A stretch of DNA of 64,000 nucleotides from Nitrososphaerota archaeon (lineage in GTDB: Archaea > Thermoproteota > Nitrososphaeria > Nitrososphaerales > Nitrosopumilaceae): contig JAGWFT010000001.1 of assembly GCA_028867755.1 (NCBI GenBank), positions 1,092,727 through 1,156,726 of the forward strand, read 5' to 3'. The first letter of the stretch is position 1. Every line of letters begins with the position of its first letter. This document shows, one piece after another, positions 22,951 through 29,180 of the stretch. Below the pieces are notes generated by a model. The model worked only from the letters and a program-made list of their open reading frames with translations, had not been told where the DNA came from and did not search any database. A program made the translations under genes and the position numbers.

Positions 22951-23817
22951 TTGGAAGAAGATATGGATTGGGGATTAAAAAATCGACTTGCACGCATAAT
23001 AAAACATCATGATAACCGAGGAGTAATGCTTGCTGTAGACCATGGCTATTTCCTAGGACCTACAGAAAGATTAGAAAATCCAAGAAAGACGATTGCGCCT
23101 TTGTTGCCTCATGCTGACTCATTAATGCTTACACGTGGGGTTTTGAGAACATCGGTAGATGCGTCATATCCTATTCCTGTAGTGCTTAGAGTTTCAGGTG
23201 GCTCTAGCATAATTGGCAAAGACCTCTCAAACGAAAAAATAACCACATCAATAAAGGAGGCAATTAGATTAAACGTGTCAGCACTTGCAATGTCAATATT
23301 TGTAGGCGCGTCTCATGAGCACGAATCACTTGTAAGCCTTGGCAATCTAGTAAACGAAGGCGAGGAATATGGAATACCAGTTCTTGCTGTCACAGCAGTA
23401 GGAAAGGAATTGGAAAAACGAGACGCAAGATACTTGGGTCTAGCATGCAGAATAGCTGCTGAATTTGGCGCACACCTAGTAAAAACATACTATTGTGAGA
23501 ATTTTGAAAAAGTTGTAAACGCTTGTCCTGTACCAGTCATAATTGCAGGAGGCCCAAAACTAGCAACAGAGTTAGATGCGTTAAAACTTACCTACGATGC
23601 AATCCATTCAGGTGCTGCTGGAGTAGACATGGGAAGAAACATTTGGCAATCAGATCATCCAGTTGCAATGCTCAAAGCTGTCAAAGCTATAGTACACCAG
23701 AATTTAACAGTAAAAGAAGCCTATGAGATATTCAACAAGCTAAAACATGTTGAAAAACCAGCAGCAGCAACAAAGCCTGCCACTAAATCTGGCCAGAAAT
23801 CTAGTCGGAAATCTTAG
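22951..23817 (+). CDS. LsrF-like class I aldolase/thiolase (DhnA family)
   Basis: MDWGLKNRLARI, MLAVDHGYF, RIAAEFGAHLVKTYY, IAGG, GVDMGRNIWQSDHP resemble LsrF. Confidence 0.85.
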   Translation: MEEDMDWGLKNRLARIIKHHDNRGVMLAVDHGYFLGPTERLENPRKTIAPLLPHADSLMLTRGVLRTSVDASYPIPVVLRVSGGSSIIGKDLSNEKITTSIKEAIRLNVSALAMSIFVGASHEHESLVSLGNLVNEGEEYGIPVLAVTAVGKELEKRDARYLGLACRIAAEFGAHLVKTYYCENFEKVVNACPVPVIIAGGPKLATELDALKLTYDAIHSGAAGVDMGRNIWQSDHPVAMLKAVKAIVHQNLTVKEAYEIFNKLKHVEKPAAATKPATKSGQKSSRKS

Positions 23818-24292
23818 ACAGATGCACGTGTACAATCTTCCATTTTTGGGACTTTACTAAAACAAATGTTCCTCGGCTTTCCATTGAAAGATGCTGGCCT
23901 CGAAAGCTATAGTTATCAACAATCATTCCAGTTTGTCTTATAACAAAAGTTACCACTGCGCAATTCTCAAATATGTCTACACGTGTATTTTTAATTTCAT
24001 GTTCATAATCAGATATACTAACAAACCTTAGCTGTTGTAATGCAATGGTAGTAGCATAGTCTTTCAAGTCAAAAGGCGGAACATCACTATAACTTGAAAA
24101 TCTAGGATCATCAAGTTGGATTGCACTTAGTGGTGCCAAGTTCTTTGTCTTTCCAGCGTTGAAGAAAGTTGCAACTATATCAATTATCTCGTCTTTATCG
24201 CCCAAAATCGATATGGTTTGAGATAATTCTAGTTTAAGTCTTGTGAAACGTAGACCAAATCTGTCACTAGTGTTGAAATATTCATGAGGCAA
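23801..24292 (-). CDS. SnoaL/NTF2-like domain protein
   Basis: C-terminal RGTFVLVK...WKIVHVHLS pattern. Confidence 0.75.
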   Translation of the reverse strand: MPHEYFNTSDRFGLRFTRLKLELSQTISILGDKDEIIDIVATFFNAGKTKNLAPLSAIQLDDPRFSSYSDVPPFDLKDYATTIALQQLRFVSISDYEHEIKNTRVDIFENCAVVTFVIRQTGMIVDNYSFRGQHLSMESRGTFVLVKSQKWKIVHVHLSKISD

Positions 24293-24334
24293 TAATGGTA
24301 TTTTTGATAATTTTATTCGTTTTCACTAGCAATA

Positions 24335-24342
24335 TTTATAAA
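24335..24342 (+). promoter_or_regulatory. TATA box (palindromic, possibly bidirectional) for the ilv/leu operon
   Basis: TTTATAAA ~32-39 nt upstream of the ATG at 24374 and upstream of the divergent gene starting at 24292. Confidence 0.55.
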
Positions 24343-24373
24343 TTATTTCAGAGGGAAAAATCATAGACTAAAA

Positions 24374-24436
24374 ATGAAGTTAGGAGGTTCGGCAAGCATT
24401 TCTTGTATTCTGCTGCTAGTCGACCTTCTGCTGTAG
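24374..24436 (+). CDS. Putative branched-chain amino acid leader peptide (20 aa)
   Basis: My translation: MKLGGSASISCILLLVDLLL*; 10 of 20 residues are Leu/Ile/Val, 8 of the last 9; directly upstream of ilvB. Confidence 0.6.
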   Translation: MKLGGSASISCILLLVDLLL

Positions 24437-24453
24437 ATTACAGCAAAGTTTTT
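24425..24453 (+). terminator. Hairpin plus U-tract (attenuator-like) in the ilvB 5' leader
   Basis: CTT-C-TGCTGTA-gat-TACAGCA-AAG followed by TTTTT. Confidence 0.45.
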
Positions 24454-24466
24454 GGAGTTAAAAATT

Positions 24467-26155
24467 ATGGAAAAAATGTCAGGTGCTAGGTCTTTAATGG
24501 TTGCCCTCGAGAAAGAGGGTGCAAACATAGTCTTCGGACTACCCGGAGGCGCAAATCTTCCAATTTATGATGAGCTTTACAAAAGCAACATCAGACATAT
24601 TCTTGTCAGACACGAGCAGTCTGCATCACACATGGCAGACGGTTTTGGAAGAGTCAGCAGAAGACCTGGAGTATGTTTTGCAACTTCAGGTCCTGGAGCA
24701 ACTAATATCGTAACGGGAATTGCTACTGCACAGGCAGATTCTGCCCCGATGATTGCAGTTACTGGACAAGTACCTACAAAAATGATTGGAAAAGATGCAT
24801 TTCAAGAAAGCGATATCATCGGAATTACAAACCCCATAGTAAAATATGCATTTCAGCCCATGACTGCAGCAGAAATCCCCGAAGTGGTAAAAAAAGCATT
24901 TTACATTTCATCTACAGGTAGACCTGGCCCTGTGCTAATTGATATTCCAAAAGATGTTCAACAAAATGAAGCTGAGATGGTATTTCCTTCAGAAGTAAAA
25001 ATAAGAGGATACCATCCATGGGTAGACCCAGACATTCGAGAAATTGAGCGAGCAATAAACATGCTACTTGCTGCTGAAAAACCAGTAATCTTGGCAGGTG
25101 GTGGTGTAATAATTTCTGGAGCCTTTGCAGAGCTCCAGTCAATAGCAGAATTATTAATGATTCCAGTAGTAACAACATTCAAAGGAAAAGGCTCATTTCC
25201 AGAAAATCATCCTCTTTCCCTAGGACCAATAGGAATGCACGGACATGCAGAAGCCAACAAGATCATGGTCGAAGCTGACTGCGTACTTGCATGTGGTTCT
25301 AGATTTTCAGATAGGTCTGTAGGAACATTTGAAGAATTTGAAAGAAATCTCAAGATAATACACATGGATGTAGACCCAGCTGAGATAGGAAAAAACCAAA
25401 CTACTCACATAGCAGTAGTGGGCGACATCAAGGCCTCGCTTAGAATAATGGTAAAAATGTTAATCCAAAAGGCCACCAAGCGACCTGGAGATAATCCATG
25501 GTTAAAGCGTGTGAACGAGACTAGAGAGTACTTTAGACAAAATCTAAAGCTTCATTCTCACCCATTGGGGGCAGCAAAGGTTCTAAGAAAATTAAGAGAG
25601 GTGCTCCCACCACAATCAATTGTAACAACCGAAGTAGGACAACATCAAATGTGGGCGTCATTATTTTTTGACGTTATACATCCAGGGACATTTTTTAGCT
25701 CCACTGGTCTTGGCACAATGGGTTGGGGTTTTCCTGCTGCGATTGGCGCCAAAGCTGCCAAGCCAGAAGTTCCAGTAGTAGACATAGCAGGAGAGGGAAG
25801 TTTTAACATGACTGAGAACTCACTTGCAGTTTCAGTATTAGATGACTTGCCTGTGATAGTATTTTTGTTAAACAACTTTTCACTTGGAATGGTTGCCCAG
25901 TGGCAGAGGACATTTTATGACAGACGCATGATAGGAATAGATCTCAAGAATTGCCCAGACTATGTCAAATTAGCCGAGTCTTACGGAGCCCAAGGCATAA
26001 GAGCACAGAGCATAGACGAGATTGGAAAGGCAGTTCAAACTGCACTAAAAAGCAACATAGCCACAGTAATTGACATTCCAATCGACCCTCAAGAAGATGT
26101 CTTGCCATTTGTGGCCCCTGGAACATCACTCAAGGAAATGATATTGCCATCATAA
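24467..26155 (+). CDS. ilvB: Acetolactate synthase large subunit
   Basis: FGLPGGA, RHEQ, TSGPGATN, TGQV, EVGQHQMW, GLGTMG, GEGSFNM; ATG at 24467 after GGAG. Confidence 0.95.
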   Translation: MEKMSGARSLMVALEKEGANIVFGLPGGANLPIYDELYKSNIRHILVRHEQSASHMADGFGRVSRRPGVCFATSGPGATNIVTGIATAQADSAPMIAVTGQVPTKMIGKDAFQESDIIGITNPIVKYAFQPMTAAEIPEVVKKAFYISSTGRPGPVLIDIPKDVQQNEAEMVFPSEVKIRGYHPWVDPDIREIERAINMLLAAEKPVILAGGGVIISGAFAELQSIAELLMIPVVTTFKGKGSFPENHPLSLGPIGMHGHAEANKIMVEADCVLACGSRFSDRSVGTFEEFERNLKIIHMDVDPAEIGKNQTTHIAVVGDIKASLRIMVKMLIQKATKRPGDNPWLKRVNETREYFRQNLKLHSHPLGAAKVLRKLREVLPPQSIVTTEVGQHQMWASLFFDVIHPGTFFSSTGLGTMGWGFPAAIGAKAAKPEVPVVDIAGEGSFNMTENSLAVSVLDDLPVIVFLLNNFSLGMVAQWQRTFYDRRMIGIDLKNCPDYVKLAESYGAQGIRAQSIDEIGKAVQTALKSNIATVIDIPIDPQEDVLPFVAPGTSLKEMILPS

Positions 26156-26164
26156 GGTATATTC

Positions 26165-26656
26165 ATGTGGTCCATAATTTCCGTACTTGTAGAAAATAAA
26201 CCTGGAGTGTTATTCAAGGTTACACATCTCTTCAGATCAAGAAATTACAACATAGATAGCATATCGGTTGGCATAACAGAAAATCCAGAATTTTCTAGAA
26301 TGACGATTACAACATCTGCTGACGAGAAACAACTCAACCAGATAATCAAACAACTCGATAAAATGATAGATACGGTAGAAGTAAAATTATTAGATGAGAA
26401 GAAGAGCATATACCGTGAGCTAGTACTAATGAAGATAAAAATAACAAAACCATCAGACATAATGGAGATAACTGATCTTGCAAACGCCTTCAAGTGTAAT
26501 GTACACGACGTAAGAAAGTCATCAATCATCGTGGAGATAACAGCAACACCCGACAGGATCAGTGCATTTGAAGATCTAGTCAGAGGATACGGTATACTTG
26601 AGATAACAAGAACCGGACTTTGTTCACTAGAGCGAGGAGTTGGAAATGAAAGTTAG
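26165..26656 (+). CDS. ilvH: Acetolactate synthase small (regulatory) subunit
   Basis: VENKPGVL...FRSRNYNIDSISVG ACT domain, EITRTG. Confidence 0.93.
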   Translation: MWSIISVLVENKPGVLFKVTHLFRSRNYNIDSISVGITENPEFSRMTITTSADEKQLNQIIKQLDKMIDTVEVKLLDEKKSIYRELVLMKIKITKPSDIMEITDLANAFKCNVHDVRKSSIIVEITATPDRISAFEDLVRGYGILEITRTGLCSLERGVGNES

Positions 26657-28163
26657 AATTTTTGATACTACTCTAAGAGATGGGGAACAAACACCTGGCG
26701 TTGCATTAACCCCAGAACAAAAGCTTTCAATTGCTCAGAAATTAGATGAATTGGGAGTGGATGCCATAGAAGCAGGCTTTCCAATAATCTCAGATGGCGA
26801 GAGAAAGGCGGTAAAAGATATAGCCCATGCTAATCTTAGGGCAGAAGTTTGCGGCTTGGCAAGAACTGAGAAAAAAGACATAGATGCCGCAGTGACAGCT
26901 GGGTTGAAGTACATACACACATTTATTGCAACATCTGACATTCACCTAAAATACAAACTCAATCTTACACGAGAGCAGGCAGTGGCAAAGGCAATCGAGG
27001 CAGTAGAATATGCAAAATCATGTGGATTACAAGTTGAGTTTTCTGCAGAAGATGCAACAAGAACTGACAGAGAATTTCTCAAAAAAGTTTTCAAAGCAGT
27101 AACAGAAGCTGGTGCCGATAGGATAGACATACCAGACACAGTGGGCTATTCTACTCCGCAGTATATAGCTTCAATTACAAAAGATGCGATTGATGTTACT
27201 CATTTACCTGTCAGTGTTCATTGCCACAATGACTTTGGTTTAGCTGTGGCAAATGCAATATCTGCAATTCAAGTGGGAGCACAGTGTGCACATGTTACAA
27301 TAAATGGCATCGGAGAAAGAGCAGGCAATGCATCACTTGAAGAACTTGTCATGGCACTACAATGCTTACAGTTTGATAAGAAATTTGAGACAAACATCAA
27401 TACCAAACTTCTCTATGAGACATCACGATATGTTTCAAAGATCGTTGGAGTCCAAGTACAACCAAACAAGGCCATAGTGGGAGAAAATGCATTTGGGCAT
27501 GAATCTGGAATTCACACCCATGGAGTATTGAATAATCCATTAACGTATGAACCAATCAGCCCAGAACTTGTAGGTAGGACGCGTTGGTTCCAGGTAGGAA
27601 AACATGCTGGAGCACATGGCGTTGCTGCAATGCTAGAGGAATACGGCATCCAGCCATCAAAGGAGCAGACACATGAGATACTAGAGAGAGTCAAGAAATT
27701 AGGAGACCAAGGAAAGCACGTCACAGATGTAGAATTACTATCAATCTCAGGTGAAGTTATGCATCAGGAAGGATTGAAAAGACTAGTCCACCTAACGGGA
27801 TTTTCAGTATCTACTGGAATTGGCAACATGCCATATGCATTTGTCAAACTAAACATAGAAGGAAAAGACTTTGTTGGCACAGATCATGGTGTTGGGCCTG
27901 TAGATGCATCAATTAATGCAATACAAAAAATCACTGGGGAGATTGCCAAAGTCAGAATAAAAGAATACAAGCTAGATTCAATTTCCGGCGGATCAGAGGC
28001 ATTATGTGAAGTAACAGTAAAGGTAGAGGATGCATATGGAAATCAGGCTTCTGCAAAATCTATTGGGGAAGATATTGTAATTACTAGTGTTCAAGCTATG
28101 ATAGATGGCATTAATAGAATAATGCTCAAAAAAATTCTTAAACAAAAAAACTTGGGACACTAG
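26646..28163 (+). CDS. leuA: 2-isopropylmalate synthase (LeuA/CimA family)
   Basis: FDTTLRDGEQ, HCHNDFGLA, GIGERAGN, HESGIH, C-terminal regulatory domain; citramalate synthase not excluded. Confidence 0.85.
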   Translation: MKVRIFDTTLRDGEQTPGVALTPEQKLSIAQKLDELGVDAIEAGFPIISDGERKAVKDIAHANLRAEVCGLARTEKKDIDAAVTAGLKYIHTFIATSDIHLKYKLNLTREQAVAKAIEAVEYAKSCGLQVEFSAEDATRTDREFLKKVFKAVTEAGADRIDIPDTVGYSTPQYIASITKDAIDVTHLPVSVHCHNDFGLAVANAISAIQVGAQCAHVTINGIGERAGNASLEELVMALQCLQFDKKFETNINTKLLYETSRYVSKIVGVQVQPNKAIVGENAFGHESGIHTHGVLNNPLTYEPISPELVGRTRWFQVGKHAGAHGVAAMLEEYGIQPSKEQTHEILERVKKLGDQGKHVTDVELLSISGEVMHQEGLKRLVHLTGFSVSTGIGNMPYAFVKLNIEGKDFVGTDHGVGPVDASINAIQKITGEIAKVRIKEYKLDSISGGSEALCEVTVKVEDAYGNQASAKSIGEDIVITSVQAMIDGINRIMLKKILKQKNLGH

Positions 28164-29180
28164 ATGTACAAAATATCTCTTATAACTGGAGATGGCATAG
28201 GTCCCGAATTATCCGAATCTGTTATAGACATACTGCATGCGATAAATGACAAGATTGGACTAAAGATAGAAATCAATACAGTTGAAGCAGGTGATGCTGC
28301 ATTAAAAAAAACTGGCAAGGCACTTCCCGATTCAGCTCTGGATACAATAAAAAAATCTGATACATGCCTAAAAGCTCCAGTAGGAGAAAGTGCTGCAGAT
28401 GTCATTGTGTTTTTACGAAGAGAGTTGAACCTTTATGCCAACATAAGGCCTGCAAAATCATATCCCAACATGCCTGCCCTTAAAGAAAACATTGACTTGG
28501 TCATAGTACGAGAAAACACAGAAGACCTCTACACAGGAATGGAGTTTGAGGTAGACAACTCTGCAATTGCATTGAGAACCATATCAGAATATGCTTCAAA
28601 CCGTATTGCAAAATATGCCTGTATTGTTGCAAATCAAAGAAATAAGCAAAAAAGGGTAACCTGCGTTCACAAGTCAAATGTCATGAGAAAGACAGATGGC
28701 CTTTTTGCAAGATCATGTGCTGCGGCAGCAAAGGACTTTCCCAATATCACGTTTGACCAGATGTATGTAGATGCATGTGCCATGAACCTCATCAGACAGC
28801 CAGAGTCTTTTGATGTCATAGTGACAACTAACTTGTTTGGAGACATTTTATCTGATGAGGCTGCTCAAGTAGTTGGTGGGCTTGGTATGGCACCTGCTGC
28901 CAACATTGGAGATAATTTTGCCTTGTTTGAGCCTGTCCATGGAGCAGCTTTTGATATTGCAGGAAAACAAGCTGCCAATCCGTCTTCTTTTATCCTATCT
29001 GCAAAAATGATGTTTGAGTGGTTAGGAATGAAAAACAATGATGCAATGTCTTTTACTGTGGCAAAGAAGATAGAAGAGGCGGTGTATGGGGTCGTAAGAG
29101 AAGGAATCAAGACTAGAGACATTGGCGGAAACAAAACAACCAAAGAATTTACTCAGCATGTAATTTCAAAACTTACTTGA
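28164..29180 (+). CDS. leuB: 3-isopropylmalate dehydrogenase (isocitrate/isopropylmalate DH family)
   Basis: GDGIGPE, RENTEDLY, NLFGDILSD, EPVHGAAFDIAG; operonic with leuA. Confidence 0.82.
   Translation: MYKISLITGDGIGPELSESVIDILHAINDKIGLKIEINTVEAGDAALKKTGKALPDSALDTIKKSDTCLKAPVGESAADVIVFLRRELNLYANIRPAKSYPNMPALKENIDLVIVRENTEDLYTGMEFEVDNSAIALRTISEYASNRIAKYACIVANQRNKQKRVTCVHKSNVMRKTDGLFARSCAAAAKDFPNITFDQMYVDACAMNLIRQPESFDVIVTTNLFGDILSDEAAQVVGGLGMAPAANIGDNFALFEPVHGAAFDIAGKQAANPSSFILSAKMMFEWLGMKNNDAMSFTVAKKIEEAVYGVVREGIKTRDIGGNKTTKEFTQHVISKLT

Follow-up and report, generated by a model that had tools for sequence, protein, structure and literature searches.

A Candidate Leu/Ile/Val-Sensing Leader Upstream of the ilvB Operon in Nitrososphaeria

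Introduction

The enterobacterial operons ivbL-ilvBN, ilvL-ilvGMEDA, and leuL-leuABCD are controlled by leader-peptide transcription attenuators, in which the speed of the ribosome reports tRNA charging. This study concerns a short upstream open reading frame (uORF) with a Leu/Ile/Val-rich tail that precedes the ilvB-ilvH-leuA-leuB genes in a Nitrososphaerota archaeon (GenBank assembly GCA_028867755.1). The stretch of DNA analyzed, hereafter the window, comprises 64,000 nucleotides (contig JAGWFT010000001.1, positions 1,092,727 to 1,156,726). The source genome (1.64 Mb, 38% G+C) belongs to the genus of Candidatus (Ca.) Nitrosotalea devanaterra, whose ilvB is 89% identical (LN890280.1). Like ivbL, ilvL, and leuL, the leader described here is a short ORF rich in codons for the amino acids of the pathway itself, lies directly 5' of acetolactate synthase and leucine genes, and is separated from the first enzyme gene by a stem-loop and a U-run; the speed of the ribosome is likewise presumed to report tRNA charging.

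Three other leader systems are close in organization. E. coli tnaC-tnaA responds to free tryptophan, which it detects via the nascent peptide, by blocking Rho; as in tnaC, the decisive ribosome position at our locus would be the end of the leader ORF, where RNA just downstream would be masked from the termination machinery. A conserved branched-chain-rich uORF upstream of ilvB is shared with Corynebacterium, in which the uORF of the ilvBNC attenuator (ilvB-II motif) has been described by a three-hairpin model with reporter data (PMC10272879, PMC11857589), and the leader peptide of C. glutamicum is reportedly made without a ribosome-binding site (RBS), according to the title of Morbach et al. 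(2000). In the mycobacterial 'Cys ribulon', the downstream RBS is sequestered in a duplex, which a stalled ribosome opens (bioRxiv 10.1101/834739). These leaderless poly-Cys short ORFs control the downstream operon in cis by ribosome stalling, and they resemble the present leader in being the first cistron at the 5' terminus and in carrying a run of codons for the sensed amino acid.

According to Blombach et al. (2021, PMC8448881), neither attenuation nor antitermination of transcription has a known archaeal example, and ribosome profiling of Haloferax reported uORFs and no amino-acid leaders (PMC7261190). Our full-text literature search likewise found no description of an archaeal leader-peptide attenuator. 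The comparisons reported below moderately favor the view that ammonia-oxidizing archaea and related lineages of the class Nitrososphaeria regulate the ilvB operon by means of a translated leader peptide rich in Leu, Ile, and Val, which would constitute ribosome-mediated amino-acid-sensing attenuation in Archaea.

Results

The leader ORF and its Leu/Ile/Val tail

The TATA box, ATG, TAG, and ORF of the leader, which had been described in an earlier note made from the letters of this DNA, were confirmed in the sequence (Table 1). The peptide reads MKLGGSASISCILLLVDLLL. Of the six Leu codons in its tail, four are the rare CTG, which accounts for 10% of the Leu codons genome-wide, and tRNA-Leu(CAG) is encoded by one gene in the genome (ARAGORN). 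Part of this CTG bias may serve the stems described below.

The rarity of such a tail was evaluated against 3445 short ORFs of the same genome lying 5–150 nt upstream of long ORFs. A tail with at least eight Leu, Ile, or Val among ten residues was found in only four of them, one being the uORF of the window. None of the other three resembles a leader. The first is an out-of-frame ORF within leuC, and the genes downstream of the remaining two, which belong to the IF-2B family and the nuo/Mrp antiporters, have no connection with branched-chain amino acids.

Conservation within Nitrosotalea

The ilvB upstream regions were gathered from about twenty Nitrosotalea genomes, and 19 were aligned. Two of the loci (L002 from genome G017 and L020 from genome G011) belong to unpublished genomes and are rows in the genus alignment and the codon table; no conclusion depends on these two alone. 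Genome G010 was searched as well and supplied no locus. The uORF has the same ATG, 20 codons, and the same stop position in all 19 genomes, and the same leader is present in Ca. Nitrosotalea devanaterra (LN890280.1). Its 63 nt contain no indels, and several indels occur between the hairpin that follows the uORF and the Shine–Dalgarno sequence of ilvB.

The pattern of substitution is that of a coding sequence with a constrained tail. The N-terminal half is free to change and the stop alternates between TAG and TAA, and the substitutions in the tail are mostly synonymous or exchange Leu, Ile, Val, and Met for one another. Codons 13, 18, and 19 take C, T, A, or G in their first position and keep T in the middle, such that the residue stays Leu, Ile, Val, or Met.

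A side feature of the tail is the palindrome GTCGAC formed by codons 16 and 17 (Val-Asp; window 24420–24425). GTCGA is present in 18 of the 19 aligned genomes, the remaining one having GTTGA. Codon 17, which interrupts the Leu/Ile/Val run, encodes Asp or Glu in every genome. Two pairings are open to these bases: one with the hairpin 1 5' arm, and a weak one with the U-run together with the leading G bases of the Shine–Dalgarno sequence.

Conservation across Nitrososphaeria

The class was scanned using 89 usable ilvB upstream regions. The score was the best Leu/Ile/Val count over the last ten residues of any uORF ending 0–160 nt before ilvB; the ilvB starts are approximate in some genera, and, as the lineages are related, the counts are descriptive and do not represent independent trials. 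A tail with at least seven of ten Leu, Ile, or Val residues was found in 53 of the 89 regions, compared with 1 of 90 for the reverse complements of the same regions and 17 of 450 (3.8%) for mononucleotide shuffles. The positives span at least 12 families and several orders; they include most genera of Nitrosopumilaceae (among them Nitrosopumilus and Nitrosarchaeum genomes), seven other families from its order, and f18, f21, f22, and f26 from other orders. Little or no signal was seen in f9, in a few Nitrosopumilaceae genera, or in f23, an AT-rich family (1 of 10). Methanosarcinales ilvB upstream regions, which were looked at in passing, yielded no uORF with a Leu/Ile/Val tail by the same test.

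The nucleotide sequences and N-terminal peptide sequences of the positives are unrelated between families, and the length of the uORF ranges from 9 to about 40 codons; nearly every positive is followed by a hairpin at its stop codon. The frame of the uORF relative to ilvB is 0, 1, or 2 in relatives. The leader of the window is in frame with ilvB, as had been noted earlier, but this is a coincidence given the frames in relatives. Because even close relatives differ in this way, fusion of leader and ilvB by read-through or frameshifting was also rejected. Leu, Ile, and Val account for 76% of all tail residues in 25 lineage representatives and for 93% of the hydrophobic or small ones, and the uORF heads are at the background content (24%). 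In hydrophobic ten-residue windows of the host proteome, the mean share of Leu, Ile, and Val is 45%; Phe, Met, Ala, Trp, Gly, and Tyr together account for 13 of 250 tail residues, and the remainder are mostly Pro, Ser, Thr, Asp, and Glu. The tails are thus specific for Leu, Ile, and Val and are not generally hydrophobic. The earlier note had set beforehand a loss of the uORF or of its Leu/Ile/Val bias in relatives as grounds for abandoning the proposal; both were found to be conserved upstream of ilvB, within the genus and across the class.

Three groups of lineages show other layouts. In the Nitrososphaeraceae-like family f15 (L023, L060, and L061), a different conserved uORF of about 25 codons is rich in Ser, Thr, Cys, and Lys and has two or three terminal Leu residues; the sensor part may be organized differently in soil ammonia-oxidizing archaea (AOA). 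In L064 and L079 (f21, another order), a uORF of 28–29 codons with a Leu/Ile/Val-rich tail ends in a TAG overlapping the ilvB Shine–Dalgarno sequence, and ilvB starts 12–13 nt after the uORF with no hairpin in between. In this tightly coupled layout, a stalled ribosome would cover the ilvB start. The Nitrosopumilaceae genera of L033–L044 and L089–L090 have a conserved AT-rich block of about 20 nt ending in ATG-GAG, which in L033 (one locus checked) is in frame with ilvB and 33 nt upstream of the aligned start. In these genera, ilvB probably starts at that ATG, and the uORF-to-ilvB spacer would then be about 22 nt rather than 55.

Promoter and predicted transcript start

The TATA box lies 39 nt upstream of the uORF ATG and is preceded by a purine-rich hexamer resembling a B recognition element (BRE). 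The transcript start was placed using the usual archaeal spacing between TATA box and start. The predicted 5' untranslated region (UTR) of about 9 nt contains no Shine–Dalgarno sequence, and a TAGAC/TAGAT motif is kept within it across the genus. The leaderless translation suggested by the earlier note holds insofar as the ATG is near the predicted start; with a UTR of this length, the uORF would be near-leaderless and not strictly leaderless. In 18 of the 25 lineage representatives, a TATA-like octamer with a purine-rich BRE-like hexamer was found 31–39 nt 5' of an in-frame uORF start. Because the TATA box is at this fixed upstream distance, the usual archaeal spacing would place the uORF at the 5' end of the mRNA in these lineages, 0–9 nt from the predicted start. 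A second promoter would not fit into the 30 nt between the uORF and ilvB, which carries a Shine–Dalgarno sequence of its own. The ilvB ATG is at 24467, one nucleotide before the position given previously (24468).

Table 1. Positions of the leader, its promoter and RNA elements, and the adjacent genes in the window
Feature	Positions	Strand	Description or basis
SnoaL-like gene	23801-24292	-	divergent from the leader
Purine-rich BRE-like hexamer and TATA box	24329-24342	+	sequence; kept in Nitrosotalea
TATA box TTTATAAA	24335-24342	+	promoter of the leader/ilvB operon; sequence
Predicted short 5' UTR	24365-24373	+	start at about 24365, predicted from TATA spacing
Leader ORF	24374-24436	+	20 codons and TAG; ATG at 24374, TAG at 24434-24436
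Hairpin 1	24382-24429	+	inside the uORF; 3' arm is the Leu/Ile/Val tail; RNAfold
Leu/Ile/Val tail	24407-24433	+	codons 12-20; 8 of 9 codons Leu, Ile, or Val
Hairpin 2	24429-24445	+	7-bp stem, 3-nt loop GAT, stop codon inside; RNAfold
U5 run (TTTTT)	24449-24453	+	3' of hairpin 2; sequence, consensus terminator scan
ilvB Shine–Dalgarno GGAG	24454-24457	+	GGAG or GGTG kept here across the genus
ilvB start codon ATG	24467-24469	+	
ilvB	24467-26155	+	Pfam: three thiamine pyrophosphate (TPP)-enzyme domains
Presumed controlled operon ilvB-ilvH-leuA-leuB	24467-29180	+	ORF list, Pfam
ilvH/N, acetolactate synthase small subunit	26165-26656	+	Pfam: ALS_ss_C and ACT
leuA	26640-28163	+	Pfam: HMGL-like and LeuA_dimer
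leuB	28164-29180	+	Pfam: Iso_dh

RNA structure of the leader

RNAfold reproduced hairpin 1 of the earlier note, which pairs 24382–24398 with 24414–24429 through 15 pairs, interrupted by a bulge and a 1x1 mismatch. It folds at −16.8 kcal/mol (z = −3.0), a value equaled by 2 of 200 shuffles. For hairpin 2, the core (24429–24435 with 24439–24445), the stop codon inside it, and the TTTTT after it stood, but the CTT/AAG extension proposed earlier is absent from the minimum free energy (MFE) fold. Hairpin 2 has a z-score of −4.8. With its 7-bp stem, 3-nt loop, and U5, the geometry is terminator-like and was picked up by a consensus scan. For the leader as a whole, the fold departs only moderately from expectation (z = −2.1).

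Within Nitrosotalea, six pairs of hairpin 2 are constant in nearly all 19 genomes (98% of cells paired) around a variable loop, and the conservation of its non-coding 3' arm equals that of the coding 5' arm. Of hairpin 1, the inner eight pairs are retained across the 19 genomes with A-U to G-U changes, and the outer seven pairs are confined to the subclade of the window. In L006, the 5' arm of hairpin 1 is replaced, yet the tail and hairpin 2 are kept; for this reason, the tail and hairpin 2 look like the core of the element. The closest relative, L002, has a shortened hairpin 2; this observation comes from an unpublished genome.

A stem-loop starting −10 to +7 nt from the end of the stop codon was found in all 25 lineage representatives, with energies from about −1 to −16 kcal/mol and with sequences, stem lengths, and loop sizes that differ between families. 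Given this position, a ribosome occupying any of the final four or five sense codons, or the stop codon itself, would hold the hairpin open. A run of at least four U after the hairpin was found in 7 of the 25 lineages, compared with 8% of control windows, and mostly in Nitrosopumilaceae. Pairing of the uORF head with the tail (hairpin 1) exceeded the codon-preserving nulls (synonymously recoded heads and codon-permuted tails) in 8–9 of 25 lineages, with about one expected; Fisher's combined p was 1e-5 to 1e-7, a value overstated by the relatedness of the lineages, and p in the window was 0.04–0.06.

Proposed mechanism and its weak points

The uORF is probably a Leu/Ile/Val-sensing leader, that is, a ribosome-speed sensor of branched-chain amino-acid supply. 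Transcription would start about 9 nt before the uORF ATG, and the coding-type conservation suggests that the 20-codon leader is translated. A shortage of Leu-, Ile-, or Val-tRNA would slow the ribosome down on the nine-codon tail with its four rare CTG codons. With the A site on codons 16–20, the ribosome covers the 5' arm of hairpin 2 by geometry, and it may occupy that position during scarcity. Hairpin 2 and U5 might then act as a weak conditional signal for premature termination just before the ilvB RBS, possibly with the assistance of the archaeal termination factor aCPSF1/FttA. If hairpin 2 were held unfolded, RNA polymerase would proceed into ilvB-ilvH-leuA-leuB. We regard relief of premature termination as a tentative assignment of the output, with a probability short of even, although it is the output that we place first.

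Several observations weigh against this mechanism. The earlier note had proposed that a ribosome stalled on the last Leu codons covers hairpin 2 and permits readthrough and that fast translation and release lets the hairpin form and terminate. The first half agrees with the geometry for codons 16–20, but hairpin 2 is covered as well once the ribosome has reached the stop codon, and a stall on codons 12–15 leaves it free, which is the wrong polarity unless RNA polymerase pauses. For these two reasons, the expected polarity needs a pause of RNA polymerase. The hairpins had been described as alternatives overlapping at 24425–24429; in the MFE fold, they share only nucleotide 24429, are adjacent, and coexist. 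The leader folds contain no mutually exclusive antiterminator/terminator pair and no alternative pairing of the terminator arm. Hairpin 2 is weak at −6.8 kcal/mol, and archaeal RNA polymerase terminates at oligo-U without needing hairpins. A run of 4–5 U is present in most Nitrosotalea but absent in the closest relatives L002 and L004 (the latter from a genome that is not flagged as unpublished), and it is missing in 18 of the 25 lineage representatives, including most deep lineages; the U-run is thus not conserved. Terminator-like sites are not enriched in the window DNA (16, compared with 12.9 ± 4.0 in shuffles), a result that rules out bacterial-type terminators as a general feature of this DNA. 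The covarying stems for which the earlier note had proposed a test were not found either, as the 19-genome alignment contains no double-sided covariation. With stems that hardly vary, the alignment speaks neither for nor against these structures. Finally, ilvC, ilvD, and leuCD of this genome have no Leu/Ile/Val leader uORF.

Alternative explanations

The alternative closest to the termination model retains the same sensor with a post-transcriptional output, for which no coupling to RNA polymerase is needed. The stalled ribosome would either unfold hairpins 1 and 2, altering the access of the small ribosomal subunit to the ilvB RBS, or shield the 5' end of the mRNA from 5'-to-3' decay. We consider this output unlikely, though by no means negligible. 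It would avoid the timing problem of the termination model and would agree with the conservation of the hairpin in lineages where the U-run is not conserved. The hairpin ends 5–8 nt before the Shine–Dalgarno sequence in many lineages (the RBS is 8 nt 3' of hairpin 2 in the window), the Shine–Dalgarno sequence is inside the hairpin in one family (L030), and RBS sequestration has a precedent in the mycobacterial leaderless poly-Cys short ORFs (10.1101/834739). However, the ilvB Shine–Dalgarno sequence of the window is unpaired with the leader and sits only in a weak A-U hairpin. Several MFE folds hinted that the tail hides the ilvB RBS, but this was rejected as a general rule; across the 25 lineages, the tail-to-RBS duplex energy was no better than that of codon-permuted and synonymous controls (median p about 0.6), with p < 0.1 in only 1–3 lineages.

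A translation-independent RNA or DNA element, for instance an operator palindrome or a sequence bound by a protein or by uncharged tRNA, with the ORF incidental to a U-rich structured leader, is improbable. The conservation of both hairpins and the head-to-tail pairing above the codon-preserving nulls would suit such an element, as would the DNA of hairpin 2, which is a perfect inverted repeat. In some Nitrosotalea genomes, the Leu of codon 15 is lost (CCA or CAA) with hairpin 1 largely retained. On the other hand, the start, stop, and length of the uORF are constant without indels, and elsewhere in the class, unrelated sequences keep an ATG-to-stop frame with a Leu/Ile/Val tail on one strand only. 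Judging by the distance from the TATA box, the ATG would be 5'-terminal on the transcript; the sequence, stem, and loop of the hairpin vary by family in a manner unlike a single protein operator, and Rfam returned no match at E-values up to 10 on both strands of 23800–25000.

It is still less probable, and in our judgment quite doubtful, that the uORF encodes a small hydrophobic functional peptide (for example, one that is membrane-associated or binds acetolactate synthase) and has no codon sensor. The conserved ORF, its hydrophobic C-terminus, and a peptide that is fairly conserved within Nitrosotalea would be expected from such a function. Between families, however, the length and the N-terminus vary as described above, and the near exclusion of Phe, Met, Ala, Trp, Gly, and Tyr is at odds with a merely hydrophobic segment. 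The hydrophobic run of 6–10 residues is too short for a membrane span and is interrupted by Asp or Glu in Nitrosotalea, and ilvB is the only constant partner; a membrane peptide was ruled out by the composition and length of the tail. A chance ORF with chance hairpins and no function, conceivable for a short ORF in an AT-rich genome with so moderate a z-score for the whole leader, is highly improbable in view of the rarity of the tail in the genome (4 of 3445), the 53 of 89 positives against 1 of 90, the 19-genome conservation, and the Leu/Ile/Val specificity.

Other genes and leaders in the genome

The divergent SnoaL-like gene has its own AT-rich box closer to its start, so that nothing requires termination in this region. 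The longest frame of leuA opens at a TTG within the small-subunit gene, the last 17 nt of which it shares (26640–26656).

The ilvD gene, which extends into the start of the window, and the ilvC gene (window 1 to about 1400 and G000 C24 881581; L099 and L097) each have a TATA-like box about 30–35 nt before the ATG and no uORF; their mRNAs are probably leaderless and outside the control of the leader. The leuC-leuD genes (G000 contig C24 628134–630141, L096) follow a second aconitase-family pair of large and small subunits in the same orientation, which is perhaps homoaconitase-like. A genome-wide regulon of similar leaders was rejected, as the other three tails found in the genome are not leader-like and ilvC, ilvD, and leuC are without a uORF. 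An unbiased genome scan for leaders for Trp, His, Thr, and other amino acids retrieved nothing convincing, and the genes 3' of the two candidates that were checked had no Pfam match.

Discussion

The leader of Nitrosotalea differs from ivbL, ilvL, and leuL in its archaeal host, its TATA/BRE promoter, and its near-leaderless ORF. Its regulatory codons encode the C-terminus of the peptide and border directly on the stop codon and hairpin. Archaeal termination is normally not hairpin-dependent, unlike that in the enterobacterial attenuators; moreover, the leader has no mutually exclusive antiterminator/terminator pair, and its U-run is not conserved. Because such a pair was tested for and not found, the Nitrosotalea leader is not a member of the classical attenuator family as defined. 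It has no sequence or Rfam relation to the bacterial ilvB-II element of Corynebacterium. Unlike in the mycobacterial Cys type, the pairing of the tail with the RBS is not above chance, and what is conserved beside the tail is a hairpin that stands by itself at the stop codon. In contrast to tnaC, the signal would be tRNA charging, and the factor, if one takes part, would be aCPSF1/FttA.

Archaeal gene regulation has been described almost entirely via promoter-acting factors. If the proposed function is correct, ribosome-sensed control of amino-acid synthesis would exist outside Bacteria and across a whole class of archaea. Its architecture would also differ from that of the bacterial leaders, with sensor codons that end a near-leaderless uORF and abut a stop-codon hairpin. 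For annotation, the finding adds an unannotated small ORF and a regulatory leader to AOA genomes. The leader is present in cultivated strains, for example, Ca. Nitrosotalea devanaterra, and it is a short, mutable element for studying how the ribosome communicates with RNA polymerase and with termination or decay factors in archaea, at a time when archaeal transcription–translation coupling and termination by FttA/aCPSF1 are being worked out.

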